Origin: a virus
Strand: one strand, 5' to 3'
DNA: 64,000 nucleotides
IMG/VR virus record: IMGVR_UViG_3300046673_000058
Coordinates: 1 to 64,000 of that record
Shown: in pieces, positions 1,394 through 54,369 of the stretch
Numbering within the stretch: position 1 is the stretch's first letter
How the letters are laid out: every line of letters begins with the position of its first letter
The notes under the pieces: model-generated
Seen by the model: only the letters and a program-made list of their open reading frames with translations
Database searches by the model: none
What the model was told of the DNA's origin: nothing
Made by a program: the position numbers and the translations under genes

Positions 1394-2428
1394 CTAGCGT
1401 GTTTTCGGTTGATACTCTCTAACTCGTACTGTCATATTCAAGTTACATGCGCTTGTGCTTGTGATGGGGCCGTACACACTCGGCGGCGTAACGGGGTTGG
1501 TCGGCGTTGACCCCGTGGGTTGGAGTTCGGTTTCCATCGTAATGACCCAGACGTCCTCTGCGGCGTACCCCTGTAATAAATAATTATATGGCATCCATGC
1601 GTACGAGTTCGTACCCCATGTAGCCCCCCACGAGTTTTTTACGAGTAATGCACCTTTAGACCCATCAAGATTGGTGTGGGTGTCGTTATACCCATATATA
1701 ACGTTCTCATGCGCGCCGTATGACGTTTCCCCCGATGCAGGCATAGGAATATCAGTACCGCCAGATTGTAACTGCTCGTACCCCGCATAGATTGAGAGAC
1801 CTACGGCTGCAACTAGGCCGGGTAACGTAACTTTCGCGCCGGTTTTAGGATTTGTAGCGGTTACAGGGGTGCTTAACGTTGCCTTGATGCGGTCTAATCC
1901 GGTTTGCGTGTGCATATCACTTGCGCCGTTTACCCTCGCGTAATTACTCACCTTAAACCCTGCCGCCGCTGTCTTTGCCGATGCAGGGGGTTCAGCGTTT
2001 GTGGTGTTTGCATTATATGCAGTTCCACTTGGGTTTTCAGGTGTGAACGGCCATGGATAATTTGAGTTAGGCGATACACCCGTGTTTGACATAGCGTCAA
2101 AGTTTCCTAGCGGGGTTGACCCTGTGTCCCCACTTATCTCATCATCATCACGAGCCCACCGATATAGTGCGAGTACGCTTCCAGCCGTATATGAACCGAG
2201 TATGGCCTGCTGCAACCACTCAAAACAACCGACCGATGCACATGATACACAACAACCGACGCCGTCCTGATTCATCACACGCGTCGTAGCAGTAGAACGT
2301 AAGTCGATTGACGCTGCTACCCGAAGCAAGTGCTCGGGGGTTAGCTCGTATATCCTATCAGTCGGTAGGAAAGGAGAAGGGATATACCCTAAGCCGTGAC
2401 CGTTGGGTGTTATTGGTCTTTCAGTCAT
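1394..2428 (-). CDS. Papain-like C1A cysteine peptidase with Pro-rich linker and C-terminal tag
   Basis: QDGVGCC (oxyanion Gln and catalytic Cys), GAHENVIYGY (His), KNSWG (Asn), YAWMPYNY. Confidence 0.9.
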   Translation of the reverse strand: MTERPITPNGHGLGYIPSPFLPTDRIYELTPEHLLRVAASIDLRSTATTRVMNQDGVGCCVSCASVGCFEWLQQAILGSYTAGSVLALYRWARDDDEISGDTGSTPLGNFDAMSNTGVSPNSNYPWPFTPENPSGTAYNANTTNAEPPASAKTAAAGFKVSNYARVNGASDMHTQTGLDRIKATLSTPVTATNPKTGAKVTLPGLVAAVGLSIYAGYEQLQSGGTDIPMPASGETSYGAHENVIYGYNDTHTNLDGSKGALLVKNSWGATWGTNSYAWMPYNYLLQGYAAEDVWVITMETELQPTGSTPTNPVTPPSVYGPITSTSACNLNMTVRVREYQPKTR

Positions 2429-3321
2429 ATTGTCTTTGGCTGATACTCTTGAACGCGTATATTAGCAGTAAGTTTACAGAGTCCGGACGCTGTGTCGAGA
2501 GGGGGGCCGGGGGGTGTATAAGGGCCTGGCGTCGGCGGCGTTCCGCCTTTCCAAAGCACAACATCATCTGCCCAGTTGCCACCGCCAGAGAGGTCAAGCA
2601 CCGTATTATCTTCGCGCCAACTGTAAATGTAGCACCCGCACGGAAACCCCCCGCAGTTTGAAGTGTCGTTACACCCAGCACCCATTTGTATACAGTTACC
2701 TATGCAATACTCACCACCCGTAGGGCCCCCCGCATCTACTGAGACCTGAAAATAGTAATTGGTATTTAACTTCAAGGCATATCCATCGAAAGTAACATAT
2801 AGTGACTGGTTTGATTCACCACCTGGGGTGCCATGTATTTGGGTGGGTTTATTGCCTTCTACGCCAAGCCAGAACTGAGCATTTAAATAGCTTGCTTGTT
2901 GTATTTCAATGCTGAAATAATATATGCCCTCCTGAATTAATCCGCCACCGGTGGGGGGGCAGTTCGAGGAACCATCCCAACTACACTGTTCGTGGATATA
3001 ACCATAATAAAGGTCATTCGCAGCAGACCAGAGCTTCCCATCGTTACCAACTAGGGTACTATCGATTACACCATTAACAGGCCACCACTGACTGATATTT
3101 ATCCCAAACTGCCATGTGTGCTGATAAGGACTACTAATCCCCCCGGGTACTACTATTCCATCCTTATTACTGTTTAGGGGCCCCCACACAGGGTACCCAA
3201 CAGTGTCTTTCGCGTATTGCGCTCTAGCCGCTTGTCCGTTGTATGCAGATAATCCAGTTCCGTGGTTAGTTATAGTAGACGAGTTTTGGTCGAATTTGTA
3301 GTAAATGTATTGAGCTGACAT
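2425..3321 (-). CDS. LamG/ConA-like tail-tip accessory protein with Pro-rich linker and C-terminal tag
   Basis: N-terminus TITNHGTGLSAYNGQA resembles the repeats of 3326..12463 (TIINKGNAGAAYNATA); ends CKLTANIRVQEYQPKTI. Confidence 0.55.
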   Translation of the reverse strand: MSAQYIYYKFDQNSSTITNHGTGLSAYNGQAARAQYAKDTVGYPVWGPLNSNKDGIVVPGGISSPYQHTWQFGINISQWWPVNGVIDSTLVGNDGKLWSAANDLYYGYIHEQCSWDGSSNCPPTGGGLIQEGIYYFSIEIQQASYLNAQFWLGVEGNKPTQIHGTPGGESNQSLYVTFDGYALKLNTNYYFQVSVDAGGPTGGEYCIGNCIQMGAGCNDTSNCGGFPCGCYIYSWREDNTVLDLSGGGNWADDVVLWKGGTPPTPGPYTPPGPPLDTASGLCKLTANIRVQEYQPKTI

Positions 3322-3325
3322 CTTA

Positions 3326-6300
3326 TCACCCCTTCGGCGGCGTTACTTTTATGTAATGCCACCCCGGTGTCGGCGTGCCTGCGTGGTTCAACGTAAGGAA
3401 CGGGAGTATGTCTATCGAACCACATTCCCCTGATAATGAGTTTACGGTGGTGCCGTCAATTTCTATGACATGCCCAGATGCGGATGTAGCACTACCTGTC
3501 GTTAGCCCCCCGGTCCCGGCGGCTTGGAACGGCTGCGAGTTAAGACTGAACTCAACAGAGTGCACCCGCGTAGTAGAAGGTCTAATTTCAAATTCAAACC
3601 ACGCGGGGTTGTTTGTGTCCGCTTGTGTAGTGAGTGTATAAGGAGTCGCAACGACCTGCCCCCCCTCATACTTAGGTTTGTCCTGTAAGTCACCCATTGT
3701 CTCCGCGAGCAACCGAGGCGTGTTCTTGTAAATGGCGTCTAATGTGAGTTGTATATCATGAGGGGTATCTAAGTTTGTTTTCTGTAATTTGGAAATCATA
3801 CATAACTCATTCACGCCGAGTTTCTCATCCATAACTAGAACATTCGTTCCTAACTTCAGCTCTTCAGACCAGTTAATAGTCGGATTAAGGTCATACAAAT
3901 CCACCACCCCAACCGACCACGATAAAATAGGCTGTGAAACTTTCGTTAAATACTGCGTTCCGGACTTTAATAACGCATCTTGCGATGTAGCCGTGTCATC
4001 TTTATACGTCCCCTCTATCATGCCGTATTTATCAATAGCATCCTGATTCGACAGCCACGGCGCGAGCGGATACGCAACGTAGTACTCATCGGTTGGGATG
4101 TAGTTTGAAGCAATGATTCCGATTGTCTTTTCATCAACGAAGAAGAACTGGTCGGTGACGTCGGTGTTGATTTCGTTGATAATCACATCAAGATTGTAAT
4201 ATCCGTGTTTATTTTCATATGTGCTCGTCTTCTCATACCTTCCTGCGGGGGCCCAGGCGTTATGTTTTATACCTGTTTGCGTGTCGGATTCATTATCGAA
4301 TCCTGGATTCGTTGTTGTGAAGTATCCCCCACACTCTAGTCCACCCAAATAGTTAGAGAACGCCACAGATGATGGATATAGGGATATGACTACCCAATAC
4401 GACCCTGTTGCCAACCACGCGCCTTGTAGTGGAAAGTTATACCATCTAAAGTTATCAGACGCAATCGAGAAGAAGTCCCCCACATACCAGAGCAACGGCC
4501 CTTGGTATGGCTCTAATACGCCCGTTTTATCTTGTTTAATAGAGTTATAAATCCCCACACAGAACTTTATCGCGCCGCCCGTTTCTTCTATCAGTCGTGT
4601 GTACTCAAGTAAGTCGCTTTGGTTCACCAACCCTTTTGTTTTTGATGGGTCTATGCGCCACAATAGGAGGGATATATCGGTTATCTGCGCCCCCCCTTGT
4701 GGGATGTTGAACATCTGCGCCGCCGCCTCATTACGTGTTCCGCCAGCACTAGCATAACCCCCTACAGTTGCTGGTAAATCCCATGGTGGGTCGCTTGTCC
4801 CTGCCTGAGCTGCTGCATCAGCACCGTGCGCCACAGGGTTCCAAGCGGTGTATGCCCCTAAATTCTTCCGACCACGCCCTATCAACATACCAGCACTTCG
4901 CGGAGATACCCCCATCTCAAAATTATTATAGGATACATACTCATTATCCGGTTCGACGCTGAAATACACGTACTGGTCAACAATCGTAGGGTTCTTCAGC
5001 CTGACCATCGGCTGGAAGTATGGTGGACTGTTAAGCGTTAGCTCCCCGGGCGCAGAGCCCGCCCCGCGCGGATACAATTTTGTTATTATCGAAGAATAAT
5101 CAGACTGAACATCCACACCTGTTGCGTTTTTACCAATAGTTATAATCGGCGGCTGGTCTGTATGGAACCCGCTCGGGTTGTAACTTCCGTATAGAATCCA
5201 CTGGTCAGAATTATAGTTATTCGAGAGTTGGTCTGCGCTTAGTGCGCTAGAGTGTTCACGGTACAGCGCAAGGGAGCAGTTTAGGTTATTCGTTTGGGCT
5301 TTGTTATTACCTAAGTAAATATTAAAGTCGCCATCAATCGTCCAGTCGCCCCACGTATTTCCATCGTCAGTTGATGTATTAGTATAAAGCTGCGTATTTT
5401 GGTTTATGTATGCGTCGAGTTCTAGAGTGGATGGCGCGATAATCGCAGGTTGTGCGTTCAGTGAGCCGCCTAAAGGTATATAATTATCCACAGGGGTCTG
5501 CATGCTCACGAGCGCGTAAGGGGTTGTATTATTAAACAAATATGTAAACCCACCACATTGCACACGGATATAATCAGCTTTAACGTCGACCCCTTCCAGT
5601 TCTCCACCGTGTGTGAATGCAGAGTAAGGGATTATCCTCGTTACGCCCGTCCCATCGGTATTCATCATAAAAACGCCGCCAGTTGGGTCCATGTTCCCCC
5701 ACCCGCAGTCGTAGGTGGCCGCCGTCGCGGTATAATAATGACCGCCATAAAAATCCATCCCCTCGGTGTACCACAAGGGGCTATCGGGATTTATCGTGGC
5801 AATATATGCGTTTGTGGTTAAGTCAAAGGTGAAGAGTTGGCACGGGCCTGCGCCTGTGCCAGGGGCTGCGAGGTCTATATCAACTATTGTATTATTTACG
5901 GTGTTCACCGTTACAGACCCACACGGTTCATGAGGCATAAAAGAACTTATTTGTGCTAAAGTAGACGTGTCCCATGTCGCTATCCATGCGTCCATCGTCT
6001 CAGCATTCACGCAGCACCCGTACAGTTTTCCGTCATACACCGCCCCGTCGCCCATGTGGTCCCCTCCACAGTCGGCGGCGGCGGTTAAGTTCGACGCGAC
6101 GACGTTTAGATTAGAGTCAAGCTTATAGATGGCTGTTGTAGTTATATAATAAAAATAGGCCCCATCCCACGCTAGACCCTGCTGCGAACCCTGCACGAAT
6201 CCGCCTTCAGTCGTTATTATCCATGCGGCCCCTGTGCTGTCGATTACACAAACAGCGATGTACCCATCAGAGGTAACGCACGCAGAGGGTGCAACATTGG

Positions 6301-9300
6301 ACGCGATGACCGAGCCCCCTACTGTGGCCCACGTGCTCCACGACGAGCCGTTCCATTCCATAGACCAGAGCGTGCCGTCACTTCCCTGCGCGAATATAGT
6401 AATATCGCCGTTGTCAGTAGCGACCGCCGTGGGTCCGCAGTAGATAGTAGCACCAGTAAGGTGAACCCAACCACTCCACGATGAGCCGCCGTTTGTGCTT
6501 GTTTTTTGGTAGAGTGACCCCGCCGTTCCACCTTCAACAAACACGTCAATTCTGCTTCCGTACGAACACGCGGTAAGCCCAGCATTCGGATAGAGCGTAC
6601 CACCTAAACTAACCCACCCACTCCAGCTCGTGCCGTTCCACTTATTGTAGTAACAGTATCCGTTACTCCCTCGCCCAAATAGGTGAATGGTATTAGCAGC
6701 CGGGGATGTTGCGGCTGGCGTCGTGGTGAGCGTTCCCCCTAAATTTTCAAGCCCCGTGCCGCCGTTTCCATCATCCCATGTATGAGAGACTGTGGCGTTC
6801 GCACCGACCATGAATATGTCCTTTCTCCCGGAACCCCACGAACACGCAGCAGGACCAGTTCCGTTCAACATCATCCATCCGTCGTTTGACCAACTTGACG
6901 CTGCGCTAGTGGATGTTTTACTTAACGTTTGTTGTGTGTTGTTTAGGTAAATCGAAGGAGCGACCGCAGGGCTACTAGGCCATACGATTTGAAGGTCATA
7001 CCACGTTCCTAATGCAATAGAATTAACAGGAGTGGTGTACGTTACCTGGTCACTATTCGCAGTGGTTCGTGAGGTGACAATACACTGATTATTTTCATCA
7101 ATCCACACTTCCCACGGTCCGAGCTGTTGTTGCTTTGACCAAAGCCTTCCGGCGGTACTTGTTTCGTTAAGGTTAAACAGGAACTCAAACGTAGTTGCAG
7201 ATGTGTTATCAATTGCCCCACCGTGCGGGGCTTCGATGTAATCAGTTGCACCGTTAAAGGCCCACATCCCCGCGCCAGAGGAGATGGGTTCATAGTCGGG
7301 CTGTTGTGCTGTCGCATTATACGCCGCACCCGCGTTTCCTTTGTTTATAATCGTTGTCCCGGTGGTCGGCCACGTGCTGTACTCAACCTCAGACGATTCG
7401 GAATTTACCCCTTCGCGCCATTTGTTCGCGGCGTATTCTGCTTTTAGTGCCACATCACCAAGGGCCGTACTGTGTAATGATAAAAAGGAGAGGGTCATTG
7501 CTGAATTATTGGCGAGCGTAACGTCGTTGCCGATGTATATATCCTCACCTAAGTCAGATGCCCATGCGCCTGTCCCAGTTTTGCTGTGTGTGATTGTCAA
7601 CTTTGTACCGTTTAGGTACATCACAGGCACGCCAATACCCGGGCCTAAAGAACCATCCCACGCGATTTGTATATAATTCCATTGCCCTATGTTAACCGTA
7701 CCAGTGGTGCTCATTATATACTGGTCCATCGTTCCAGAACCAGTGCCGGTCGTTGTGCGCTGAACTAATATTCTCGCTGAACTATCCACCCACGCGATTA
7801 CAAAGCCACCTTTGGAATAAATATAACTATAATTAGTCGCACCAGCGGCGTCTATCCTGAATATCGCCTGGAAAGTGAAGTTGTATAAATTCTCAAGTTC
7901 AGGTACGTCAGGGATTACAATATAATCGGTAGTATCCTGGAACTGCCACGCCGGTGCGCCGTTGTTAGTTAACTCATAGTACCCTGGGCTGCTCGCTACC
8001 CCGTCACCATCAGCACCCGCAACGCCCCCGTCGTTAGGTATTAACAGACCTTGGCTCGGGAAGTAATCATATATAACTTGCGCTGCGTTGGTGACGTTCA
8101 CTGGGTCGTATGAGTTCTGTATAGCGGCGAATGTACTAGCAAGGGTTAGTATGCGTTTTGAGGGGTCAGATGGAGGTATATAAACCCTACAATATCCACC
8201 AGTCTGTTGGATTATTTTATCTATGCCTGTTTTTATCGTTTCCCAGCTAAGGTCAACATCAAGCGGCATGTTAAGTGTGGGGTCAACGTAAATACCCGTT
8301 ATGAACCCGTCATTGAGTATTTCAGTACTAATATCTTGTAGTACCTGTAACGTCATACGCTGAGAGCTTTTATACTCAAAAGCGATGTTATACCGATTAA
8401 GATATTCTTCCGGCCCGTCTGCGGTGACTAATAGATTGTACCCACTCCCTGCTCCCAGAGTAGAGCCACCACTCCCCTGCACCCCACCAAAGTCGCCATA
8501 CGCTTCTACTTTTTGTAGTACAAACGCCTGCTTAAATTGGTTGTCTCTGCCGTACCACCATATCTCATACCCTTTCGGGTTTCCTGAGAGTGCCGGAACT
8601 AATGGAGAATCAATATTAAGGTTAAACGTGAGTAAATCAGCGTTCCCCAACTCCTGCTGAACCTGCGGGGCGATTCTACCATCTAGCACTCCGATATAAT
8701 TAAACGCCCTGTTAATGAGTTTAGCCCACTTACTCCAACCGGCAATTCCCACGCTCGCGGGGGTCCATTCCGTGTACCACAGGGCGCCGTCCTGGCCGCG
8801 TCCGAAAAGGGTTATCTCATTCTCGTTATTTGAAGCGGCGGCTAAGGTGCTTGTGACGGGACCGCCGATGTTTACCCACGCCCCGCTAGTAGTCCAATTA
8901 GAACTGGTATTCGTCTTCGTCCAGATTGAATTATCAGAGCCTACACAGTACAGGTCAACCCGTCCGGATGTCATGGACACCGCAGCAGGTCCGGTGCCTG
9001 GGTGTAGTGAGCCACCTAAACTATACCACGGGTGCCACGTGGTGTTATCAGCAGACCACCTGTACCAACAAGCCCCATCAGTGCCTCTTACAAATACACA
9101 AATTCCTGTTTCGTAATAACACGCTGCGGGTGATGAAGATGCCGCCCCGCCAAGTTGCTGCCATGATGACGGGCTAGTAATGGCGGGGACTCCTGGGGAC
9201 GCATGGGTATCAAGTAGTGTATAAGGGTAAGTTCCAGAGAACGTGTAAATATCCCCCCCCACTATGACGCTGATTCCGGCGTCAGTGGTGCATAGCCCTT

Positions 9301-12300
9301 CGACCTCCAACCCCGCAGTTGTTGCCCCTGTATCTGGATATGTGATTATTATTGACTCACTACTGCCGTTGGGGTTCATCACTCCAACCACCGCAGTCTC
9401 GCCCGCCACCCAGTTCTCATTTGTTGAGTAATAATATTTACCGTTGTAAGGGCATATCCCTTGGTAGTAGATTCCTGCAGGGCCATCGCCTGTGATTGAA
9501 CCTTCGTATGCGAACGTATCTAAGTTGAACTTGAACACCTTTGTGTGCCCTAGTGCAGTGCTTCCGGATGTGCCGTATTGTATCGCTACTAAACAGTTGT
9601 TCTCAGCATCTACACCAACACCGCCTATGTTAAGCACCTCATACGTGAGTCCAGATAATTCACATAAATCATAATTCGTTATAAAGCTCAGGTCGCTCGT
9701 GTTGAACAACCCCACCATCTCTTTTTGAGGGAGTTCTTGCGTAGTACAGAAACAGTAAAGAATGCCGTTATTTAATCCAGCCCCCCCTAAGTGGTCGCCA
9801 CCACATAGGGTCCCTACATTTTCCCTATACATGACTACGTTCATGCTCTGGTCTAACTTGTAAATAGACCACGTAGTAACGTAATAATAATACGTCCCGT
9901 CAAACGAAATGCTTTGTGGCTGCAAATATGCCGTTCCTGGTGTGCCCTTTAAGTGGAATAATGCGTTGCCTTTCCCGACGGCGAACACATTGATTTTCCC
10001 ATCCGCGTCCATACAAACAGAGGGCCCGGCATTCGCAGCAAGCGTCCCGCCAAGGGTCATCCATTCCCCCCACGTTTTACCCCCGTCGATTGAACCTTTG
10101 TAATAAACCGCCCGGGTTAGCCCTTGCGCAAAGACAAATATCTGGTTTTCCGCTGGGGAGACCGCAGAGACCGACGAGACAATCATTCCCTGTAAATCCA
10201 ACGCGCTTTCATACCCATCTGCGCTTGTGATGTACATTACCTCTCCGTCGACTTTGGAGGAAAAGAATACGTCATCCCTACCTGGTGCGCTCGAACACGC
10301 TGCTGGTGCTCCACCGTTCACGACCTGCCAGCCAGGGTTGCGTTGCCGGACTTCTAAAGTGTATGGAACAGTTATCGGCGGTTCTTGGGTGGGGACATAG
10401 ATTATGTTTATGTCGGATGTTTCGGTTATAATCAGCGTATCTGTTTCTGCTACATTAATACTAGATGAGAACTCTTCGAGCGAATGCCCTTCGATATTTC
10501 TTAGGTTTATCGTTTCGTGCGACGTAATCTTGGGAAACGAAGACGTTTCCCTAACAGAGAGGTTCATCACCTCGGAGTTAGTGAATCCGAACGTATTGGT
10601 CTCGCTAACCGATAGTGTCGCCGTCTCGTCAGAAAAGTAAGTAGGGAGTATTTGAGTTGTTCCAGCGTCAGAATCAGTTAATATAGCCGTTTCAGTCGAT
10701 GTGACATACTTACAGCCTACCTTCTGAATATATGAATTCTCAGTTACGATAAGTGTTATTATTTCAGGTGTTGTGACCTCACTTATGGTAGTTACCGATA
10801 CGTATGACTTTTCAGTAATCGAAAGCGTTATAACTTCATCCGTATTTACAACCCTGTCGCCGCCGCTTATTTGGGTACTGTTGCGCTCTTTGGGTTTGAG
10901 CGTTATCATTTCTTTCGACGTTTGATGAATCGTAAACGATGAAAATTCTGTAGGTGTGAGGGTGTTAGTATCTGGAGAAGATACATCTACTGTGCTCGTA
11001 GCCCATATCGCGCTATCGGCGGCGTAATTACTAGCAAAGTCACCGCTTGCATCGTAGTTGTACCACCTGAAAACCGCGATAGTTCCGTCTAAACCTCGGT
11101 TATTATTCCAGTAGCCGTCTATGTTCCCAACTATTAGCGAACCAACCGGACAGTCATCCATCCAGTCGCCGGTTCCCGTGTCAAAGTGGTATAACGTCTG
11201 TTGAGTGCCGTTGATGAATATTGCAATTCCATAATCATTCGGCCCTTCCATCGCGTCATAAGAAATTTGGATATCATACCAGTTTCCGATTGTAACGGGG
11301 GTTCCGCTTGTGTAATACGCGTCCCAGTTGCCGTCAGTGGTAAATCGTTGCAGTTGAAGCCTGTTGTTTGGAGTATCAACAAACAGACACCACTCACTAT
11401 TCGTATTAGTCGCGGAGTCTATAGCCCGCTTAGAAAATAACCTCGGTTGTGTGCTCGCTCCAGAGAACGTGCCGTTGAGGTAAAACGCTATCTCGGCGGA
11501 GTAATAATCTAAATCACAGGTCTTTGAACCGTTAGGAATCCAAATATAATCAGTATTACTTGTGAACTTCCACGCCTTATGTCCAGACGGCAGGGTTATC
11601 TGTTTATTTGAGCTAAAGTGACCGTTATAGCCACTGCCTGTATTCGACCCCGTGTTGGTGATGAGTCCACCAGAAACAGCCCAAGTAGAGAGGTCAACGC
11701 TTGCATTTGAGGGTCTATACGTAGAGTTCCAAGTACTCCCTCGGTATTTATCATAATACCAGTGCCCGTGGTTCGCAGATGCAAAAGAAGCGGATTGATT
11801 GGTGTTATACTGCCGGTAGACCATAAGCCAACCGGCTGCGTTATAACCGCGCGATGACGACGGGCACGCTGAGTTGGCAGAGTAGTTCATTATATTGGCG
11901 CTGCCAACCGAATCGTTGTACCACGCACCAGTCGGATATGAATTATCAGTACCCGCGTTAACCGTTTGCTCTACGGGTGTTGCACCGTCAGTACCTATCC
12001 ATATCCTCGGCTTTGGGGTGCTGGCTCCGTTCGGAGTTGCTCCTGCAGACCACGCGATTTGAATATAATACTCATGTCCTGTCGGTGTTGAACCCGATGG
12101 AGTGTAAAAGTAAATATCATGGCCGCTCGTGTCGTAACGGGATAATATAAGATTCTGGCTGCTGTCCTGGAAGTAAATCTCATACGCGCCGACGCCTTTG
12201 TCCCATATCTTGTTCATCCCGTGGCCGCCAGCGTGGTAACTGACGTATATCTCCCAACTAACGGTGTTTTGGTTGTTAGTCGTTGAGTTGGCGGGGATGC

Positions 12301-12463
12301 AGATAAAGTCGTTACTACCCGTCAAGCCCCAGTACGATGTGCCACTTGCGGAGAGTGTGTGGAAAAGAGACGGCGTGCTACAATATCCATTACATCCCGA
12401 AGCGGTGCCTTTATTCGTCCATGTCGTCACGCCTTCTGGAACGTAATAAATCGTCTGCGCCAT
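3326..12463 (-). CDS. Giant baseplate hub (Tal-like)/receptor-binding protein with four LamG-like domains, PLL-type lectin propeller repeats and two extra beta-propellers
   Basis: Follows Dit; hub motifs QELGNADLLTF, IGKNATGV..IITKLYPRG, AIDKYGMIEG, ELKLGTNVLV; W-x-x-LGG/DVFxxGxDGALW repeats; LamG-like GNWYDIQI...IFING. Confidence 0.85.
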   Translation of the reverse strand: MAQTIYYVPEGVTTWTNKGTASGCNGYCSTPSLFHTLSASGTSYWGLTGSNDFICIPANSTTNNQNTVSWEIYVSYHAGGHGMNKIWDKGVGAYEIYFQDSSQNLILSRYDTSGHDIYFYTPSGSTPTGHEYYIQIAWSAGATPNGASTPKPRIWIGTDGATPVEQTVNAGTDNSYPTGAWYNDSVGSANIMNYSANSACPSSSRGYNAAGWLMVYRQYNTNQSASFASANHGHWYYDKYRGSTWNSTYRPSNASVDLSTWAVSGGLITNTGSNTGSGYNGHFSSNKQITLPSGHKAWKFTSNTDYIWIPNGSKTCDLDYYSAEIAFYLNGTFSGASTQPRLFSKRAIDSATNTNSEWCLFVDTPNNRLQLQRFTTDGNWDAYYTSGTPVTIGNWYDIQISYDAMEGPNDYGIAIFINGTQQTLYHFDTGTGDWMDDCPVGSLIVGNIDGYWNNNRGLDGTIAVFRWYNYDASGDFASNYAADSAIWATSTVDVSSPDTNTLTPTEFSSFTIHQTSKEMITLKPKERNSTQISGGDRVVNTDEVITLSITEKSYVSVTTISEVTTPEIITLIVTENSYIQKVGCKYVTSTETAILTDSDAGTTQILPTYFSDETATLSVSETNTFGFTNSEVMNLSVRETSSFPKITSHETINLRNIEGHSLEEFSSSINVAETDTLIITETSDINIIYVPTQEPPITVPYTLEVRQRNPGWQVVNGGAPAACSSAPGRDDVFFSSKVDGEVMYITSADGYESALDLQGMIVSSVSAVSPAENQIFVFAQGLTRAVYYKGSIDGGKTWGEWMTLGGTLAANAGPSVCMDADGKINVFAVGKGNALFHLKGTPGTAYLQPQSISFDGTYYYYVTTWSIYKLDQSMNVVMYRENVGTLCGGDHLGGAGLNNGILYCFCTTQELPQKEMVGLFNTSDLSFITNYDLCELSGLTYEVLNIGGVGVDAENNCLVAIQYGTSGSTALGHTKVFKFNLDTFAYEGSITGDGPAGIYYQGICPYNGKYYYSTNENWVAGETAVVGVMNPNGSSESIIITYPDTGATTAGLEVEGLCTTDAGISVIVGGDIYTFSGTYPYTLLDTHASPGVPAITSPSSWQQLGGAASSSPAACYYETGICVFVRGTDGACWYRWSADNTTWHPWYSLGGSLHPGTGPAAVSMTSGRVDLYCVGSDNSIWTKTNTSSNWTTSGAWVNIGGPVTSTLAAASNNENEITLFGRGQDGALWYTEWTPASVGIAGWSKWAKLINRAFNYIGVLDGRIAPQVQQELGNADLLTFNLNIDSPLVPALSGNPKGYEIWWYGRDNQFKQAFVLQKVEAYGDFGGVQGSGGSTLGAGSGYNLLVTADGPEEYLNRYNIAFEYKSSQRMTLQVLQDISTEILNDGFITGIYVDPTLNMPLDVDLSWETIKTGIDKIIQQTGGYCRVYIPPSDPSKRILTLASTFAAIQNSYDPVNVTNAAQVIYDYFPSQGLLIPNDGGVAGADGDGVASSPGYYELTNNGAPAWQFQDTTDYIVIPDVPELENLYNFTFQAIFRIDAAGATNYSYIYSKGGFVIAWVDSSARILVQRTTTGTGSGTMDQYIMSTTGTVNIGQWNYIQIAWDGSLGPGIGVPVMYLNGTKLTITHSKTGTGAWASDLGEDIYIGNDVTLANNSAMTLSFLSLHSTALGDVALKAEYAANKWREGVNSESSEVEYSTWPTTGTTIINKGNAGAAYNATAQQPDYEPISSGAGMWAFNGATDYIEAPHGGAIDNTSATTFEFLFNLNETSTAGRLWSKQQQLGPWEVWIDENNQCIVTSRTTANSDQVTYTTPVNSIALGTWYDLQIVWPSSPAVAPSIYLNNTQQTLSKTSTSAASSWSNDGWMMLNGTGPAACSWGSGRKDIFMVGANATVSHTWDDGNGGTGLENLGGTLTTTPAATSPAANTIHLFGRGSNGYCYYNKWNGTSWSGWVSLGGTLYPNAGLTACSYGSRIDVFVEGGTAGSLYQKTSTNGGSSWSGWVHLTGATIYCGPTAVATDNGDITIFAQGSDGTLWSMEWNGSSWSTWATVGGSVIASNVAPSACVTSDGYIAVCVIDSTGAAWIITTEGGFVQGSQQGLAWDGAYFYYITTTAIYKLDSNLNVVASNLTAAADCGGDHMGDGAVYDGKLYGCCVNAETMDAWIATWDTSTLAQISSFMPHEPCGSVTVNTVNNTIVDIDLAAPGTGAGPCQLFTFDLTTNAYIATINPDSPLWYTEGMDFYGGHYYTATAATYDCGWGNMDPTGGVFMMNTDGTGVTRIIPYSAFTHGGELEGVDVKADYIRVQCGGFTYLFNNTTPYALVSMQTPVDNYIPLGGSLNAQPAIIAPSTLELDAYINQNTQLYTNTSTDDGNTWGDWTIDGDFNIYLGNNKAQTNNLNCSLALYREHSSALSADQLSNNYNSDQWILYGSYNPSGFHTDQPPIITIGKNATGVDVQSDYSSIITKLYPRGAGSAPGELTLNSPPYFQPMVRLKNPTIVDQYVYFSVEPDNEYVSYNNFEMGVSPRSAGMLIGRGRKNLGAYTAWNPVAHGADAAAQAGTSDPPWDLPATVGGYASAGGTRNEAAAQMFNIPQGGAQITDISLLLWRIDPSKTKGLVNQSDLLEYTRLIEETGGAIKFCVGIYNSIKQDKTGVLEPYQGPLLWYVGDFFSIASDNFRWYNFPLQGAWLATGSYWVVISLYPSSVAFSNYLGGLECGGYFTTTNPGFDNESDTQTGIKHNAWAPAGRYEKTSTYENKHGYYNLDVIINEINTDVTDQFFFVDEKTIGIIASNYIPTDEYYVAYPLAPWLSNQDAIDKYGMIEGTYKDDTATSQDALLKSGTQYLTKVSQPILSWSVGVVDLYDLNPTINWSEELKLGTNVLVMDEKLGVNELCMISKLQKTNLDTPHDIQLTLDAIYKNTPRLLAETMGDLQDKPKYEGGQVVATPYTLTTQADTNNPAWFEFEIRPSTTRVHSVEFSLNSQPFQAAGTGGLTTGSATSASGHVIEIDGTTVNSLSGECGSIDILPFLTLNHAGTPTPGWHYIKVTPPKG

Positions 12464-12961: not shown

Positions 12962-13411
12962 TTAGCTCTGTATAGTTATCGTCTTTTGGTAAACTACTGA
13001 TTCCGTACTTGTTTTTGGCTGTAATGGTAGTACTTCTACCGTTCTGCTAAGCATGCACAGCGGCTGTGCGCCGGTATAACTTGCATTGGTTAGGTTCGAT
13101 GCTCCGCCGTTAAATACTGCGTCTTCGTTCCAGTCAAAGTTTGCATCGGTAGGCCCGAACGTTGCCTGAAACGTTATCGTGTTCGTGGTTCCGCTGGACG
13201 TTGATGGGTAACTCGTATCCATCCTTTTCAAAAGCGTATTCGTCGTACCCCCTAGCTTGTGGTTAGTGGTTGCCTGCGCGACTGAACCCCCGTTATCCCC
13301 TACACCTATCAACGCGTACGTATTACTAAATGGATTCCAGTTAGGTGTTGCACCAATCTCGGTAGTCATCAGGTCGCATATCGCATTCCATCCATCTGCT
13401 GTCAATGGCAT
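12962..13411 (-). CDS. Baseplate/tail-fibre-associated structural protein
   Basis: IGVGD...ITFQATFGPTDANFDWNE.AVFN...MLSRTV...KT pattern typical of viral tail-fibre N-terminal/gp53-like domains; GAGGA RBS. Confidence 0.65.
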   Translation of the reverse strand: MPLTADGWNAICDLMTTEIGATPNWNPFSNTYALIGVGDNGGSVAQATTNHKLGGTTNTLLKRMDTSYPSTSSGTTNTITFQATFGPTDANFDWNEDAVFNGGASNLTNASYTGAQPLCMLSRTVEVLPLQPKTSTESVVYQKTITIQS

Positions 13412-13432
13412 TTCTTTTTATTCCTCCTTAAA

Positions 13433-13600
13433 TTAAATGTAGTATTCTCTTTCGCGTTCTACGACTCGCCTTTCGCTCGCCGTTCGATACATTCCCCCCG
13501 CCCAAAAAGATTCGGGGTAGATTTTTATCACATCGTGTTCGATAATCTTAATTTTTCCGTGTTCCGTAATGTTAAGGTTTGCTTTCTCTCCGCCTTCCAT
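13433..13600 (-). CDS. Small hypothetical protein
   Basis: Probable start MEGGEK.. after GAGG RBS within ORF 13433..13651. Confidence 0.4.
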   Translation of the reverse strand: MEGGEKANLNITEHGKIKIIEHDVIKIYPESFWAGGMYRTASERRVVEREREYYI

Positions 13601-13617
13601 TTTAGCCTCCAATTCTA

Positions 13618-14427
13618 CTACTGTAATCCCACAAGGTACCTGTCTCTCCACCGCGTTTCCAACGTGCCACTACTCGGCCCACTAAACAAAATATCATTAT
13701 CCCCTGGGGTAAGATACGGCCACGATGGGGCAACAACACCCGCCGAATTTGGGTTGCCGTTGATTAGAACCGTGTGTGGGATTCCATACTCGTCGGTAAT
13801 CACGTCGAGTACGTCTCCGGTTGTTAAACTACCGTACCATGTAAATGTTTGATTGGTGGTGTTATTCACCCACGAAACCGGCCCAAGATACGCCCCGCTT
13901 GACGTGAACCGCCAGCGAGGTAATGCGTTAGTGTCGCCGTTCGTGGTGAGGGTATATTCTGTTGTGCCTGTGAGTACTCCTATTGTTTGTACTGATTCAT
14001 TGTATGTGTACGCTGGACCAGTACACCCGAAATCCACCGCTAGTTCCATCATATAGGGTATAGCAGCCTCATTCTGCGGGGTGCTTGTCAGCTTCTTCGC
14101 CATGAAATAACTACCCGAGTATTCTGCGAATGTAAGCATCTGCTCGCCTAGTGACGGGTCAAGCACCGAAGTGAGTTGCGTAAGGGCGTAGAGCATAGAG
14201 GTACGGGTTCCGTCCGGCGGTTCGATTCTGAATATCGCGTGAATAGGGTATGAGGTAAAGATAGGTTGTGTGCTTACCAGACTCTCAGCGCCGGTTGGGA
14301 ACTGTTGACTTACTTGTCCGTCCATAAACCAGTAATTCGCATCCGTGGTGAGGTGCGCGTAATACGGGGCGCTCGTAAGGTCAACTCCGCCGAAGGTAAC
14401 TTTGCCAATTCCTGTGCTTTGTGCCAT
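13618..14427 (-). CDS. Distal tail protein (Dit)
   Basis: Directly after tape measure; VTFGGVDL start, NGDTNALPRW, WPYLTPGDNDI...TRWRDRY end. Confidence 0.85.
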   Translation of the reverse strand: MAQSTGIGKVTFGGVDLTSAPYYAHLTTDANYWFMDGQVSQQFPTGAESLVSTQPIFTSYPIHAIFRIEPPDGTRTSMLYALTQLTSVLDPSLGEQMLTFAEYSGSYFMAKKLTSTPQNEAAIPYMMELAVDFGCTGPAYTYNESVQTIGVLTGTTEYTLTTNGDTNALPRWRFTSSGAYLGPVSWVNNTTNQTFTWYGSLTTGDVLDVITDEYGIPHTVLINGNPNSAGVVAPSWPYLTPGDNDILFSGPSSGTLETRWRDRYLVGLQ

Positions 14428-14432
14428 CTTAG

Positions 14433-16784: not shown

Positions 16785-16791
16785 TTTTTAT

Positions 16792-17259: not shown

Positions 17260-17272
17260 ATTTTTTCACCTT

Positions 17273-18597: not shown

Positions 18598-18598
18598 G

Positions 18599-18931: not shown

Positions 18932-18940
18932 GGCTAACAC

Positions 18941-38521: not shown

Positions 38522-38552
38522 TTTGTTAAAACCTTTTGAACCTTTCGAATGC

Positions 38553-38582
38553 AATCATCATTTAATCATCAGCTAATCATCA
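38553..38582. repeat. Three TGATGATT repeats (minus strand) at 11-bp spacing upstream of portal
   Basis: aatcatca at 38553, 38564, 38575. Confidence 0.8.
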
Positions 38583-40620: not shown

Positions 40621-40964
40621 TGGCAAAGACTATCATGCTTCCTTTTCTATCTGATGTACAGCACCCTACCGAACAGACGCGCATAATGAGGATTGCTCAC
40701 CAACTTTATAAGGTGGAGCGAGAGCTGCAAGGAAACACCCACTGGACCTACATCAGACAGGATAACCCCCTTGACAACATTGAATACCAAGCGAGCATTT
40801 TAGAGTCCATTGGCGCGGATTTGCGCGATATTGAGGGGGATATTGACGCGTTGGATGATGAAGGTGTGCGTTCTGTGCTGACTGTATGGTATAGTGGGGT
40901 CTACCGACTCTATTTTGACATGTTTACTGAACACAACCAACTGATTGATGGTAGTGCCGATTAG
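40620..40964 (+). CDS. Hypothetical helical protein; the only convincing plus-strand gene
   Basis: Fills a gap in minus-strand coding; has its own TATA box; protein-like composition. Confidence 0.7.
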   Translation: MAKTIMLPFLSDVQHPTEQTRIMRIAHQLYKVERELQGNTHWTYIRQDNPLDNIEYQASILESIGADLRDIEGDIDALDDEGVRSVLTVWYSGVYRLYFDMFTEHNQLIDGSAD

Positions 40965-41059
40965 TGAACTAACGCAGCATAGAGTAACTCAGCGACCAAC
41001 ACTCCGGCTACGATTACGATAAATTCTGCTAACCAGTTGTAGACTTCTTCTTGCGTCAT
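40961..41059 (-). CDS. 32-aa single-TM microprotein
   Basis: MTQEEVYNWLAEFIVIVAGVLVAELLYAALVH; GGTGA RBS. Confidence 0.55.
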   Translation of the reverse strand: MTQEEVYNWLAEFIVIVAGVLVAELLYAALVH

Positions 41060-41063: not shown

Positions 41064-41159
41064 TCACCTTAGCGGGTTTATCCACATATAGATGATAAGC
41101 ACTACTGCCAGTATAATACAGTAGTACATCATCATGTTGTCTAATTCTTCGTGGGTCAT
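41064..41159 (-). CDS. 31-aa single-TM microprotein
   Basis: MTHEELDNMMMYYCIILAVVLIIYMWINPLR. Confidence 0.5.
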   Translation of the reverse strand: MTHEELDNMMMYYCIILAVVLIIYMWINPLR

Positions 41160-44017: not shown

Positions 44018-44344
44018 CTATTTGCTACCTCCGCAGCCACAGTATTCACAACAGGCACAGCAGCAGCACGGTGCGGGTGGTGTCGGTGTAGGTGGATTTG
44101 GTGTAGGGCCTGGGGGTGTTGGCGTCACTGTGGGTGTTGGGCTAACCGTCGGGGTTGGTTTCGGTGAGGGGGTTGGTTGTGGTGGGGGCCTCGGCGAAGG
44201 TGTAACTGACGAACTTACCGAAGGCACAACCGATGGTGTAGGCGTAACACTATGTTGATTAATCGCCAGATACGCGCCAACAACACCAAGTGCGAGTAAG
44301 GCAAGGAGAAGCAACACTACGGCGCGTTTCCATTTACAGAGCAC
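44018..44344 (-). CDS. Membrane-anchored Pro/Thr/Ser-rich protein with Cys-cluster tail
   Basis: N-terminal TM; PTPS repeats; CCCCACCEYCGC. Confidence 0.7.
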   Translation of the reverse strand: MLCKWKRAVVLLLLALLALGVVGAYLAINQHSVTPTPSVVPSVSSSVTPSPRPPPQPTPSPKPTPTVSPTPTVTPTPPGPTPNPPTPTPPAPCCCCACCEYCGCGGSK

Positions 44345-47118: not shown

Positions 47119-47121
47119 CTA

Positions 47122-48300
47122 GTGACTACTCCGCTAGCTTTCGCAAGCGGCTTCTATGGTTTTGACACCAACAGACGTTAGCCCGCGTCTGAGTATGTTG
47201 ATTGCGGCATTTTCGTCACGGTCTGCGACGTATCCGCAGTCACACGAATGTTTGCGGTCTTTTAGTTCCTTCTTGACTATCTGACCACATCTCGAACATT
47301 CCTGAGTTGTATTGTTAGGGTTCACCAACACCACAATAGAACCAGCTTCCTCCGCTTTGTTCTGTGTTGCGTTGATGAATTGTGTCCACGCTGCATCACC
47401 TATTGACTTGGCGAGATACCTATTCTGAACCATCCCTTTTACGTTCAGGTCTTCAAAGGCAACGATACCGAATCGGTTAACGATTGCGCGGCTTAGTTGA
47501 TGCACGAAGTCGTTACGTCTACTTCCTATCCGTTCGTGTATTCTCGACACGACCTTACGGGCTTTCGCTCTTTTAGGTGTTCCCTTCTCTTGCGCCGATA
47601 GTTTACGCTGTGCTTTCGCTAATGCTTTCTCGTCGTGTCTAAAGAATCGAGGGTTCTCTACCTTCTCACCGTTTGATAGGGTGGCAAATGATGTTAGTCC
47701 TACGTCGATACCCACAACCGCGCCGTCTTTGAACGGTTGTGTCTTTGGTTCATATTCCGTCGTGAAACACGCAAACCATTTTCCTGATGAACGGCGATTG
47801 ATGTTTAGCCGTTTGACTGTGCCTTCTATTGCTCTGTGAAGTTTGATTTTAACGTCACCTATCTTTGAGAGTTTCAACGTCGTTTCTTTTAACGAGAATC
47901 CCAACTGTGGGTAGGTGAACGAATCGTAACGCCCTTTACCTTTGAAACGTGGGTAGCCAACTTCTTTTTCTCCGGCTTTTACCCTTCTAAAGAACGCTTT
48001 GAATGCTAAATCGACACGCTGTTGGGTTTCCTGCAACACTTGAGAATGAACCGTTTTCAGCTCAAGATGTTGCGCTTTCCACGACGGCAACAAGTTATGC
48101 GTGTCATAGTTAGAAATGGATTTTTGTTCTTGTTCCCACGCGTCTTTACGTATCGCTAACGTTTGATTGTAGACAAACCGACACAGTTCTAGCGTCTGAT
48201 TCATTATCGTTTCCTGTGCTTTTGTCGGATAGAGTCGATAGCGATACACTTTATGCATTGTTTATCTATTGGTGTTTATGGCATAAGTATGTTGTGTGTT
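47122..48300 (-). mobile_element. TnpB-only IS605/IS1341-like element; omegaRNA overlaps tnpB 3' end
   Basis: Right-end hairpin GAAGCCGCTTGCGAAAGCTAGCGGAGTAGTCAC; no tnpA; left end not clearly defined. Confidence 0.7.
47134..48258 (-). CDS. tnpB: TnpB RNA-guided endonuclease (IS200/IS605 family)
   Basis: YRYRLYPT HTH, GYPRFK, GIDVG (D), FEDL (E), CSRCG..CDCG zinc finger, DRDENAAINI (D). Confidence 0.96.
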   Translation of the reverse strand: MHKVYRYRLYPTKAQETIMNQTLELCRFVYNQTLAIRKDAWEQEQKSISNYDTHNLLPSWKAQHLELKTVHSQVLQETQQRVDLAFKAFFRRVKAGEKEVGYPRFKGKGRYDSFTYPQLGFSLKETTLKLSKIGDVKIKLHRAIEGTVKRLNINRRSSGKWFACFTTEYEPKTQPFKDGAVVGIDVGLTSFATLSNGEKVENPRFFRHDEKALAKAQRKLSAQEKGTPKRAKARKVVSRIHERIGSRRNDFVHQLSRAIVNRFGIVAFEDLNVKGMVQNRYLAKSIGDAAWTQFINATQNKAEEAGSIVVLVNPNNTTQECSRCGQIVKKELKDRKHSCDCGYVADRDENAAINILRRGLTSVGVKTIEAACES

Positions 48301-52073: not shown

Positions 52074-52825
52074 TTCAACCCGCCTAAAAGTAACTTTCCA
52101 ATATGTTCGGTGTATGCTGGGGGGATGGCCTGTGTGAGGTCATATTTGTTTTTCGTAAGCGTTGGGTGTTTGTTCATCCAAGCAATACCCATAGCATCGC
52201 ACCAGTCGAGATACCGCGCAGAACCGTTGCCTCCGTGTCCTACCACGGTGCAATATCGGGTATTCACTCTTTCAGCATATTCTTTATTTAATTTCTTACG
52301 CAGTTCCTTATCTCCACCTGCGGAATAATTTCCAATAGGACTGCAATTAATGACTACGGCATAGTCGCCGTTCCTGACTGAACCGTTGTGCCTACATCCA
52401 CACGGCGGATAAATCCATTGTTCTGCGCTTATCTCGAATAATCTGTGCCTAATTACTCGTAGATTAAACATTGTGCCGCATAGTTTCAATGGTTTTATAA
52501 GTTTCGCGCCAACTACGTTTTCGATGATATACGGCTTGTTTGTTTCCGTCAGCATATCGCGTGTTGGTTCCAACAGATCAGGATATTTCTTTCCTTTGTT
52601 TCTCCATGATAAAGATGCAAACGAATATGCCTGACACGGCGGACTAGCGTGGATAACGTCAAACTGCTGCAGAAAATCTGGTTCCAGATCAAAAACGTCT
52701 GATTGAATAAATTCAAACGGATAATTCGGTTGTTCTTTTAGATCAACGCCTACCACATCAAACCCTGCGCGATTGTAGCCCATAGCGGCCCCGCCCGCAC
52801 CACAATACAAGTCGAGAAGCTTCAT
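52070..52825 (-). CDS. C5-cytosine DNA methyltransferase
   Basis: DLYCGAGG, HASPPCQ, IIENV, RHRLFE, QAIPPAY. Confidence 0.9.
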   Translation of the reverse strand: MKLLDLYCGAGGAAMGYNRAGFDVVGVDLKEQPNYPFEFIQSDVFDLEPDFLQQFDVIHASPPCQAYSFASLSWRNKGKKYPDLLEPTRDMLTETNKPYIIENVVGAKLIKPLKLCGTMFNLRVIRHRLFEISAEQWIYPPCGCRHNGSVRNGDYAVVINCSPIGNYSAGGDKELRKKLNKEYAERVNTRYCTVVGHGGNGSARYLDWCDAMGIAWMNKHPTLTKNKYDLTQAIPPAYTEHIGKLLLGGLK

Positions 52826-53160
52826 TCTTAATTATACCCTACAACACGTAAATTGTAAATACCAAACATGATAGCCCCAGACCCATAAGAATACCAGGGC
52901 ACCACACATCACTAAATCACTTATTTTTCGTTTCACAAGTCACTTCCTTACGCGCTTCTTCCCGTTTTTTACGTCGTTCGTCCATCAGTTTAAACAGATT
53001 TGGGGGCCGACCTCGCGGCTTTTTCATTTCTTCTTGTCCCAAAACGTACATATTTTGGGATAAAGCACTGTGTCATCAAGCAGGTGAAACCCCCGGGCAG
53101 AGCAGTAGTATCCAGTACCTGATGTGCCTGCGTGTTGGCAACTCGCACAGGGTTCTAAAA

Positions 53161-54369
53161 TCATTTTATAACCTTAGCCACTGCAACCCAGCCGGACCAC
53201 ACCGTGCCATTCCACGTCTTACGGTAAAGTGCCTTGTCAACTCCTACCGCTTCGAGAGTTACGTTGGTGCCGTCGAAGTACGCTGCTGGTCCAGTTCCCG
53301 CGAGAACCTGCCCACCGAGGTTGAACCACGTACTCCACGCGGTGCCGTTCCACGATTTCATATACACTCCATCGGGCGAACCGCGAACGTAGACATCCAT
53401 ACCAGTCCCACGGGTTATTGCCGATGGTGCTGAAGTGAGATTGCCACCTAGCGACGTCCATGTTTTGCCGTCGTCAGGACTGTGCCATAATGCGTTGTCT
53501 GAACCTTTTACAAATATATCCATTCCTAAACCTCCTGGTGTTGATGCGAAGTTGATTGTTGTCGGGGGTGGCGTTACGCCTCCAGCACGTTTCAGTATCG
53601 GCGTCATATTTGGTGGATACATTTTCATGAGGTCGGTAAATAAGCTAGGCATCGAAAAGCCCCCCTGGTTATACCACCATTGGAACCCGCAACATGGTGC
53701 TTTCTGACTTGCCATCGCGTCGACCATTTCTGCGTAGGTGCTCGCGTCAGCGCCGTAATCAGTTTGTGCCCACGTTCCGATACAGAGCCCCTGTTCAAAT
53801 GTTCCGTGGTCTTTGTTAACCCCTGCTTCCGTGCCTATTTCACTCGCGCTAATCATGCTGCTTGAGGTGTAGGTCTCAAGCCACACGTTTAGCGTGCCGG
53901 GTTTTATCGTGCAGTTCGGTGTGTATTGGTTACCGGCAAATATGTCATTGTTCCCCGTGGGGCCTCCTGTGCCTTGGCCGCCATAAGTTCCTGCGACCAT
54001 CTTACCTGGTGAAGCACTCATCATCGTGCACATCTCAGCTCCAGATTCTGATTCGCCGATTACCCATTGTACTCCGGAACTGGCGAGTTGTTGATAGTAA
54101 CTGAGGGACCAATTCGTTGAGGTGCCGTCATTGGAGTTGTTGACCCCGCACGTAACGCCGTTCGCCTGGCAGTCTGCAATGAAGGATTGGTTGGGGTAGC
54201 CCCCGTCGGAGATTACTAAGAGGAAATCTATTATTCCCTGTGCTTTTAACGGCGCTACAGCTTGGACCGTTGACGCTGGTAGCGGTGTTGTCGATGTTCG
54301 TTTTAATTTATAGGGTGTTGGGTTGGAGTCGCTTGAAGCAGCGAGGCCGTAAACCATCTGTTGTGTCAT
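53161..54369 (-). CDS. Putative glycosidase-like enzyme with three C-terminal PLL-type lectin blades
   Basis: DIFVKGSDNALWH..WTSLGG repeats; N-terminal alpha/beta core with WVIGES and WLETYTS. Confidence 0.6.
   Translation of the reverse strand: MTQQMVYGLAASSDSNPTPYKLKRTSTTPLPASTVQAVAPLKAQGIIDFLLVISDGGYPNQSFIADCQANGVTCGVNNSNDGTSTNWSLSYYQQLASSGVQWVIGESESGAEMCTMMSASPGKMVAGTYGGQGTGGPTGNNDIFAGNQYTPNCTIKPGTLNVWLETYTSSSMISASEIGTEAGVNKDHGTFEQGLCIGTWAQTDYGADASTYAEMVDAMASQKAPCCGFQWWYNQGGFSMPSLFTDLMKMYPPNMTPILKRAGGVTPPPTTINFASTPGGLGMDIFVKGSDNALWHSPDDGKTWTSLGGNLTSAPSAITRGTGMDVYVRGSPDGVYMKSWNGTAWSTWFNLGGQVLAGTGPAAYFDGTNVTLEAVGVDKALYRKTWNGTVWSGWVAVAKVIK

Follow-up and report, generated by a model that had tools for sequence, protein, structure and literature searches.

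This analysis concerns a group of enzyme-like proteins encoded in the first 64,000 nucleotides (nt) of the virus record IMGVR_UViG_3300046673_000058 from IMG/VR, a stretch referred to below as the window. The record as a whole is a 72,781-bp virus to which CheckV assigns a completeness of 100%, and the window (bases 1-64000), whose long open reading frames (ORFs) are all carried by the minus strand, covers the greater part of an uncultured siphovirus-like phage genome. An initial annotation of this DNA had singled out four ORFs and arranged them in two pairs, each with a virion-borne and a soluble copy of the same activity: two papain-type peptidases (here P0001 and P0002) and two glycosidase-like proteins (P0003 and P0004). 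All four were recovered on the minus strand, and their translations contain every motif quoted for them. The peptidases do form such a pair, one copy standing in a gene cluster at the tail tip and the other outside the tail module; the glycosidase-like proteins do not, and the tail partner of P0004 was found in related phages.

Two papain-family peptidases and the tail-tip gene cluster

P0001 (1394..2428, minus strand, 344 amino acids, aa) and P0002 (41166..42059, minus strand, 297 aa) are recognized by the Pfam family PF00112 (Peptidase_C1) with 33.7 and 48.2 bits, respectively, at a cut-off of 20.7. The best match of both is 3ois_A, a solved bacterial cysteine protease (E 8.5e-17 for P0001 and 1.2e-16 for P0002), and the two proteins are 29% identical in a pairwise alignment of 294 columns (E 4e-24) that spans the block of residues reported as shared in the initial annotation. 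The Gln, Cys, His and Asn residues are in register with those of 3ois_A and of cathepsins, and this tetrad is invariant in all 11 tail and free peptidase copies found in eight records. As judged from sequence, P0001 and P0002 are true paralogs of the C1A papain family, and proteolytic activity is predicted for both. Their best solved relative, which we take to be the xylellain-like C1A protease (the structure record says "Cysteine protease"), shares the aligned catalytic residues with them but is a cellular enzyme with neither a tag nor a lectin module and with a role unrelated to phage infection.

P0001 closes the tail module, in agreement with its earlier assignment to that module, and its start codon overlaps, in the sequence ATGA, with the stop codon of gene X, which lies upstream. 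Protein X (2425..3321, minus strand, 298 aa) is Cys-rich and belongs to no Pfam, PHROG or NCBIfam family, and the leads obtained for it from an atlas all scored 0.80 or less. X in turn starts 4 nt past the stop of a giant tail-tip protein of 3045 aa (3326..12463, minus strand), which bears a Prophage_tail domain (PF06605, E 1.5e-14) at aa 2441-2913 and PLL-lectin repeats at aa ~725-2088 (nt ~6200-10291) similar to the PLL module of P0004. In relatives, this protein corresponds to two genes, for a PLL-bearing protein of ~2400 aa and a tail-tip protein of ~850 aa (G001:C5 15893-25719, G004 14358-24043), so that it is either a fusion in the window or split in the relatives. Two ORFs downstream of P0001, at 219-809 (minus strand), lies a gene for a coiled-coil protein of 196 aa that has one hydrophobic helix, at its C-terminus, and weak matches to coiled-coil families only.

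The relatives come from a scan for the P0004 family, which yielded 13 viral loci and one genome contig, G001:C5 (95 kb, below C5), which by its gene content is a related phage. C5, G002 (57,956 bp, complete) and G004 (80 kb) were compared in full. X homologs occur in the tail clusters of C5, G002, G004 and G006, and untagged X paralogs in C5 and L011.

The tail-cluster proteins are marked by short C-terminal elements. Tag B, a motif of the form V.VR.[YW]QP[KG].. that follows a Pro/Thr linker, was located by regular expression in P0001 (...V.VREYQPK.., 1397..1447, minus strand), and X carries it at 2428-2478. The strict pattern matches eight of 1440 ORFs (of at least 60 aa, from 15 records), and all eight are tail-cluster proteins; X of the window fits a loosened pattern, and three G006 proteins bear a variant, RPREYQ.G.R, that the patterns missed and that was spotted by eye. 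Altogether, B ends 12 of the 13 tail-cluster proteins in five records; the thirteenth, a TIM barrel of C5, ends in another element, module A. Module A (of the type ..IDILPYL..NH.G.PTPG.H..), located by regular expression and BLAST, is the C-terminus of the giant tail protein (aa 3017-3045, nt 3329-3415, minus strand), and it likewise ends the tail-tip protein of G002. Moreover, A immediately precedes B within one chain in G004 and G006, and also in the proteins P0018 and P0020. The tail-tip protein of C5 and G004 stops at "KIDG..V", and the next gene, encoding the TIM barrel, carries A; in the window and in G002, "IDG" runs directly into A. In C5 and G004, the barrel looks like an insertion into the C-terminal end of the tail-tip protein. 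B tags from one genome are closer in sequence than those from different genomes, and B may provide a common means of docking on the tail tip. A complex prediction for the tail-tip residues 2900-3045 with P0001 residues 285-344 gave a median of 0.32 at a mark of 0.34, which is no verdict, and it was not used.

The second peptidase, P0002, is encoded ~700 nt upstream of the terminase genes and ends at the point where the PLL domain of relatives begins. No PLL remnant is present downstream of it, and its end resembles the linker preceding the PLL domain of P0004 at an E value of 0.012 only. Among the 120 best relatives listed, many are ~295-aa forms with PF00112 alone, like P0002, and 21 more, all with at least 49% identity, combine PF00112 with PF26607 (~415 aa); the latter is a precomputed label that also marks relatives of P0004. 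Directly downstream of P0002 are two tiny ORFs of 31 and 32 aa (41064-41159 and 40961-41059, minus strand), each with one hydrophobic helix on the Kyte-Doolittle scale. Neither matches a family or is conserved as such in relatives; to call them holin-like candidates is speculative. In C5 and G004, small membrane-anchored ORFs are found at least one gene downstream of the free peptidase. The neighbourhood of the free copies fits the position of a lysis cassette, short of proof.

A further peptidase of the tail cluster, that of G002 (L040; G002:C1:34467-36461, 664 aa), has its C1 domain split into aa 13-279 and 605-642 by an insert ending in an intein-like "HNS" junction.

Predicted barrel proteins and the paralog pairs of relatives

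P0004 (53161..54369, minus strand) is an enzyme-like protein of the free type, composed of a TIM barrel (aa 1-267, nt 53569-54369) and a PLL-lectin module (aa 272-402, nt 53164-53556). Its AlphaFold2 model (predicted local distance difference test, pLDDT, 79.2) shows an eightfold beta/alpha barrel followed by PLL-type blades. The PLL fusion noticed earlier was borne out, residues 272-402 matching the PLL lectin 8q82_A with an E value of 2.7e-25. The repeats of this C-terminus and those of the giant tail protein match the Photorhabdus PLL/PHL lectins, which are seven-bladed beta-propellers, and the short Kordia fucose lectin 6htn; those lectins stand alone, whereas here the repeats are fused to enzymes and to a tail protein. 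The module of P0004 comprises ~130 residues, about one third of the 340-370 residues of such lectins, and does not make a complete seven-bladed propeller; it would correspond to roughly three blades, and only as an oligomer would it complete the propeller. One kind of glycan may be the ligand of both the free barrel and the tail. In Foldseek searches with the P0004 model, PLL lectins rank first (E 5e-9), followed by barrels of the glycoside hydrolase families GH26 and GH5, of chitinase and of triose-phosphate isomerase, and a viral library returns assorted glycosidase-like barrels. Within the family, E106 and E165 are invariant in 17 sequences, and E106, E108, E112, E165 and E192 are kept in all 11 TIM copies.

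P0003 (21512..23449, minus strand) probably starts at 23446, with an ATG that shares nucleotides with the upstream stop. Its AlphaFold2 model is of moderate quality (pLDDT 64.8, predicted template modelling score, pTM, 0.70) and consists of an eightfold beta/alpha barrel (aa ~3-435), a beta-sandwich (aa ~437-573) and a disordered tail of low confidence. Foldseek relates the barrel to GH5, GH26 and other glycosidase barrels. P0003 had been described as fused to BppU; on this moderate model, the beta-sandwich resembles the N-terminal domain of BppU (ORF48) of phage TP901-1 in fold (3uh8, E 9.9e-6, TMt 0.57), as it resembles the neck/connector proteins 9mt4 and 9c39, but it has no sequence match to BppU, and the P0003 gene stands outside the baseplate region, with capsid genes on one side and head-tail connector genes on the other.

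The claim that P0003 and P0004 share two Glu-centred motifs holds for the glutamates themselves, which are conserved within each family (in the 12 sequences of the P0003 family, E311 is invariant and E223 is kept in at least 90%). The remainder of "FECYTSTM" is not conserved in the P0003 family apart from an aromatic residue two positions after the Glu, and therefore its likeness to "LETYTSSSM" of P0004 is not a family feature. Likewise, the expectation that structure prediction and Foldseek would reveal a TIM barrel with two Glu in both proteins was borne out at the level of the fold, which is very common, and not at the level of sequence. The best BLASTP match between the two (E 0.84) falls elsewhere in the proteins and leaves the motifs unaligned, hhalign of the 12-sequence P0003 and the 17-sequence P0004 alignments gives a probability of 0.25%, and a hidden Markov model (HMM) of the P0004 barrel finds P0004-family proteins alone and misses P0003 even at an E value of 10. 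The two are thus no paralogous pair. Both families are small: 16 proteins matched P0004 residues 1-270 in a word-indexed search of 5.8 billion, none matched P0004 in 50,697 phage records, and 19 matched P0003 at E ≤0.001 among 1.84 billion representatives.

A locus search for the P0003 family, made with a five-sequence alignment, placed a homolog of 40% identity in G006 among homologs of the head-tail connector genes, a position that favours a structural role. P0003 represents a separate TIM-barrel family, unrelated to P0004; it stands among structural genes and is probably one more virion enzyme. The possibility that P0003 substitutes for the tail TIM copy missing from the window was ruled out by G006, which has both. 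In the non-structural region of the viral contig L055, a P0003-family gene of 28% identity lies directly beside a P0004-family PLL gene, and this is the one indication of a joint action of the two barrel families.

The tail partner of P0004, which had been sought in P0003, is instead a member of the P0004 family encoded beside the tail-tip protein in C5, G002, G004 and G006. C5 has all three pairs: peptidases at 13005-13991 (at the tail end) and 62548-63804, X proteins at 14005-14940 and 79822-80694 (60% identity), and P0004-type TIM barrels at 14952-15896 and 83729-84964 (E 3e-21). The tail cluster of G002 contains the TIM barrel, the peptidase and X in this order, in addition to a free barrel and a free peptidase; G004 has a tail TIM barrel and X along with free TIM-PLL and peptidase-PLL proteins, and the order in the tail cluster of G006 is peptidase, X, TIM barrel. 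The window carries both forms of the peptidase, a single P0004-type barrel (the free TIM-PLL protein) and a single X (the tail form). The earlier proposal of a virion copy and a free copy for each activity thus stands for the peptidase in the window and falls for P0003 and P0004, while co-occurrence in relatives, suggested as a check, extends tail and free copies to the peptidase, the P0004-type barrel and X.

The free copies are devoid of both A and B. An untagged barrel occurs in 14 records, 11 of which also have an untagged peptidase in the sequence covered; none was found in the partial loci L011, L012 and L014, and the whole 46-kb L011 record is without a PF00112 match. In 10 of these 11 records (all except the window), the free barrel and the free peptidase are homologous over their last 115 residues (36-89% identity, E 3e-19 to 3e-63). 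The shared module is of the PLL type in C5 and G004, Ig-like in G002, L005 and L007-L010, and of a third type in L013 and L017. In G002 and its relatives, one small ORF separates the free barrel from the free peptidase, and in G002 the two stand just before a run of genes that ends in a portal homolog.

Genome context and probable host

The gene map was drawn with Pfam and is read from high to low coordinates, which gives the usual siphovirus order; all features are on the minus strand. The large terminase (38732-40039) is followed by a Mu-type portal gene with an intein (35723-38554), an XkdF-type prohead protease (32930-33358, E 1.1e-26) and a capsid protein of the E family (29988-31058). 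Three large ORFs (21512-27578), in a span that includes P0003, lie between the capsid and the connector genes; then come the connector genes and a tail-completion gene, the tape measure (14433-16784) and Dit (13618-14427), with the giant tail-tip protein, X and P0001 at the low-coordinate end. The portal intein occupies aa ~197-540 and contains LAGLIDADG and helix-turn-helix domains, and the portal homolog of G002 (594 aa) has no intein. The head module also encodes a 441-aa protein with a C-terminal domain of the uracil-DNA-glycosylase superfamily (34073-35398, aa 285-412) and an HNH endonuclease (33383-34009) that is 48% identical over 153 aa to a paralog at the high-coordinate end (61782-62282); more HNH-like ORFs are found at 60626-60961 and within the final 9 kb of the virus record.

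The 42-64 kb region contains methylases, a MuF-like gene, LPD29, TnpB, a phosphoadenosine phosphosulfate (PAPS)-reductase-like gene and nucleases. Next to P0004 and far from the head module, the segment 49658-52825 encodes a MuF-like protein of 466 aa, a polyvalent-protein domain of the LPD29 type and a C-5 cytosine methylase, and these proteins may be packaged or ejected. The PAPS-reductase-like gene (58441-59220) is 93% identical to L055 3945-4778, in an otherwise distant 86.8-kb viral contig. In a 108-aa ORF at 44018-44344, a hydrophobic helix at the N-terminus is combined with a long segment rich in Pro and Thr and with a series of Cys at the C-terminus (CCCCACC..C.C). A scan for sigma-70 promoters (31 found, 27.5 expected) and intrinsic terminators (21 and 21.8) revealed no enrichment.

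The host is probably a bacterium. The major capsid protein has matches in 160 phage records, of which the 15 listed, like all the named host tallies, are bacterial; the matches of the terminase are likewise bacterial phages. No archaeal-type genes were found, and nothing here indicates an archaeon, contrary to the archaeal or methanogen-virus frame of the initial annotation. C5 is the only relative linked to a genome, a metagenome-assembled genome (MAG) titled Korobacteraceae (Acidobacteriota). Its binning is doubtful because its composition is foreign to the MAG: its GC content is 47.8%, compared with 56-60% in six other contigs of the MAG, and its tetranucleotide correlation with these contigs is ~0, compared with 0.87-0.97 among them. 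The P0004 family is present in one of 401 genomes of the MAG's class, and that one is the C5 contig itself. Capsid relatives of 26-46% identity occur in 66 of the 401 genomes (62 of 397 without four genomes flagged unpublished, G103, G260, G300 and G356), which is weak host evidence because phages of unrelated bacteria match similarly (36-39%).

A TnpB/IS605 OrfB-type gene at 47134-48258 (minus strand) is 91-92% identical to C5 2442-3566, and the other genes shared by the window and C5 are 30-58% identical, which suggests a recent movement of this element between related phages. A host link through TnpB was tried and rejected: the only close copy (91%) is in the phage-like C5, and the other two of 151 family genomes with matches reach 47% at most.

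Proposed tail-mounted and free forms of envelope-degrading enzymes

The pairing of tagged and untagged paralogs points to a phage clade that keeps its envelope-degrading enzymes in two formats, a tail-tip cluster and free paralogs, a reading to which we assign a probability of roughly 0.55. In the first format, X and P0001, joined in relatives by a P0004-type TIM barrel, follow directly after the PLL-bearing tail-tip protein; tag B would dock these enzymes on the tail tip, where they would cut protein and glycan layers locally during entry. In the second format, P0002 and P0004, the latter with its PLL module, are the free paralogs encoded outside the tail module. The free peptidase and the free barrel of relatives would be aimed at the same ligand, because both carry the same C-terminal binding module. 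Such free copies would act at or after lysis, either in the manner of endolysins or as soluble matrix- or receptor-destroying enzymes. A duplication for entry and exit is a plausible way to describe the arrangement.

Several observations weigh against this picture. In the window itself, the scheme is incomplete, with no tail copy of the TIM barrel and no binding module on the free peptidase. The 10 of 11 records in which the free barrel and peptidase share a module reduce to about three independent lineages, G002 and L005-L010 being near-identical relatives. The "free" peptidase of C5 stands beside a MuF-like head gene, and P0004 of the window is near MuF-like and LPD29 genes, and the free copies may be packaged into the head. 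As to the barrels, neither P0003, nor P0004, nor their relatives match any glycosidase family of Pfam, NCBIfam or PHROG. The catalytic glutamates of clan GH-A follow strands 4 and 7; in both models, the order of the DSSP strands places the conserved glutamates behind strands 4 and 6, and glycosidase activity is for this reason a guess at the level of the fold. Finally, the tail cluster occupies the place where many siphoviruses keep their lysis cassette.

A more specific function of the two C-terminal elements is conceivable, although we consider it doubtful. A and B could be the halves of a small split beta-sheet domain in which a strand of B completes A, forming a plug-in socket through which unrelated enzymes (the C1 peptidase, the TIM barrel and X) are mounted on the tail. 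In the untagged paralogs, the tag would be replaced by a lectin or Ig-like module corresponding to the glycan-binding repeats of the tail. The free enzymes would then home to the surface glycan to which the virion itself binds and serve as receptor- or matrix-destroying enzymes at release.

The position of the cluster raises an unlikely but straightforward alternative, namely that X, P0001 and the TIM barrel of relatives are the lysis cassette itself, with B serving for export, membrane targeting or regulation and with the untagged PLL-fused copies being accessory or independent of the virion. In many siphoviruses, the lysis cassette comes right after the tail genes, typically following those for the tail fibre; after P0001 come a Zn-ribbon-like ORF of 75 aa and the 196-aa coiled-coil protein with its hydrophobic C-terminal helix, and a cultured Alicyclobacillus phage has a protein annotated as an endolysin, with a C1 domain, a few genes past its tail-fibre gene. 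The tight packing described above, X starting 4 nt past the stop of the giant tail gene and its own stop overlapping the start of P0001, speaks instead for a continuation of the tail module. Module A, moreover, is the C-terminus of the tail-tip protein itself, where the barrel of C5 and G004 looks inserted, and A and B are adjacent in one chain in G004 and G006; nor is the tag hydrophobic.

It is less probable still that the peptidases act on viral proteins, maturing those of the tail or head or trimming linkers and tags, and leave the host envelope alone. Maturation is the function of many viral cysteine peptidases, the Pro/Thr linkers and the tags are plausible cleavage sites, and the second peptidase of C5 adjoins a MuF-like head gene. 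The phage, however, already encodes a dedicated XkdF-type prohead protease, and the lectin and Ig-like modules that the free peptidases have in common with the free barrel point to a ligand outside the cell or on its envelope; in addition, a cultured phage provides a precedent for a C1 domain joined to a peptidoglycan-binding domain. The arrangement proposed originally, an archaeal virus with P0003 and P0004 as related virion and soluble glycosidases and with peptidases directed at a glycosylated S-layer, is very improbable: it can draw on the two predicted barrels with glutamates after strands 4 and 6, on the gene neighbourhood in L055 and on the occurrence of C1 homologs in archaea and bacteria alike, but it is opposed by the lack of any sequence or profile homology between P0003 and P0004, by G006 with its P0003 homolog alongside a tail P0004-type barrel, and by a capsid and terminase of bacterial-phage type with no archaeal marker found.

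If the enzymes do exist in tail-mounted and free forms, the duplication itself resembles what is known of lysins and depolymerases, and it is the enzyme families and the tag logic that are new. According to the part of a review consulted (PMC5380687), phage depolymerases are either virion-bound or soluble, and virion-associated peptidoglycan hydrolases or tail-associated muralytic enzymes (VAPGH/TAME) mirror endolysins, so that there, too, a particle-bound form for entry is accompanied by a free form released at lysis, built from modular catalytic and binding parts. The term "undescribed lysis system" used in the initial annotation was thus an overstatement. The arrangement discussed here differs from those lysins and depolymerases in that the two forms are separate paralogous genes, in which the tag of the tail-cluster form is swapped for a lectin or Ig-like module.

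As to the enzymes, the part of a papain-superfamily survey covered here (PMC10318531) places the wall-cleaving phage members in NlpC/P60, CHAP and Amidase_5, groups to which neither the C1A peptidase of the window nor the two unassigned TIM barrels belong. A precedent is the "endolysin" of the Alicyclobacillus phage MMB025 (PV686781.1, 753 aa), so annotated automatically, which combines Peptidase_C1, an Rv2525c_GlyHyd-like domain and PG_binding_1, the same three kinds of part as in P0002, P0004 and PLL. In MMB025, these parts form one chain with a peptidoglycan-binding domain, whereas here they are separate genes with lectin modules, and the P0004 family shows no profile similarity to the MMB025 protein by hhalign (0.3%). 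Our literature search found no description of C1-family peptidases as phage tail or lysis enzymes. The words peptidase, lectin, endolysin and depolymerase are absent from the main text of the Tunturi virus paper (PMC11924767), its supplements, which may hold gene annotations, having been outside the search.

An archaeal-virus lysis system is without support here, and the record is corrected in this respect. If the two-format reading is true, a C1A peptidase and two unassigned TIM-barrel families would join the envelope-degrading enzymes of phages. It would also reveal a genomic rule, in which a tail tag or a binding module sorts one and the same catalytic domain to the particle or to the free form, with matching modules on partner enzymes. 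Tag B would then be a simple sequence marker for tail-mounted enzymes in uncultured viruses of soil and peat.

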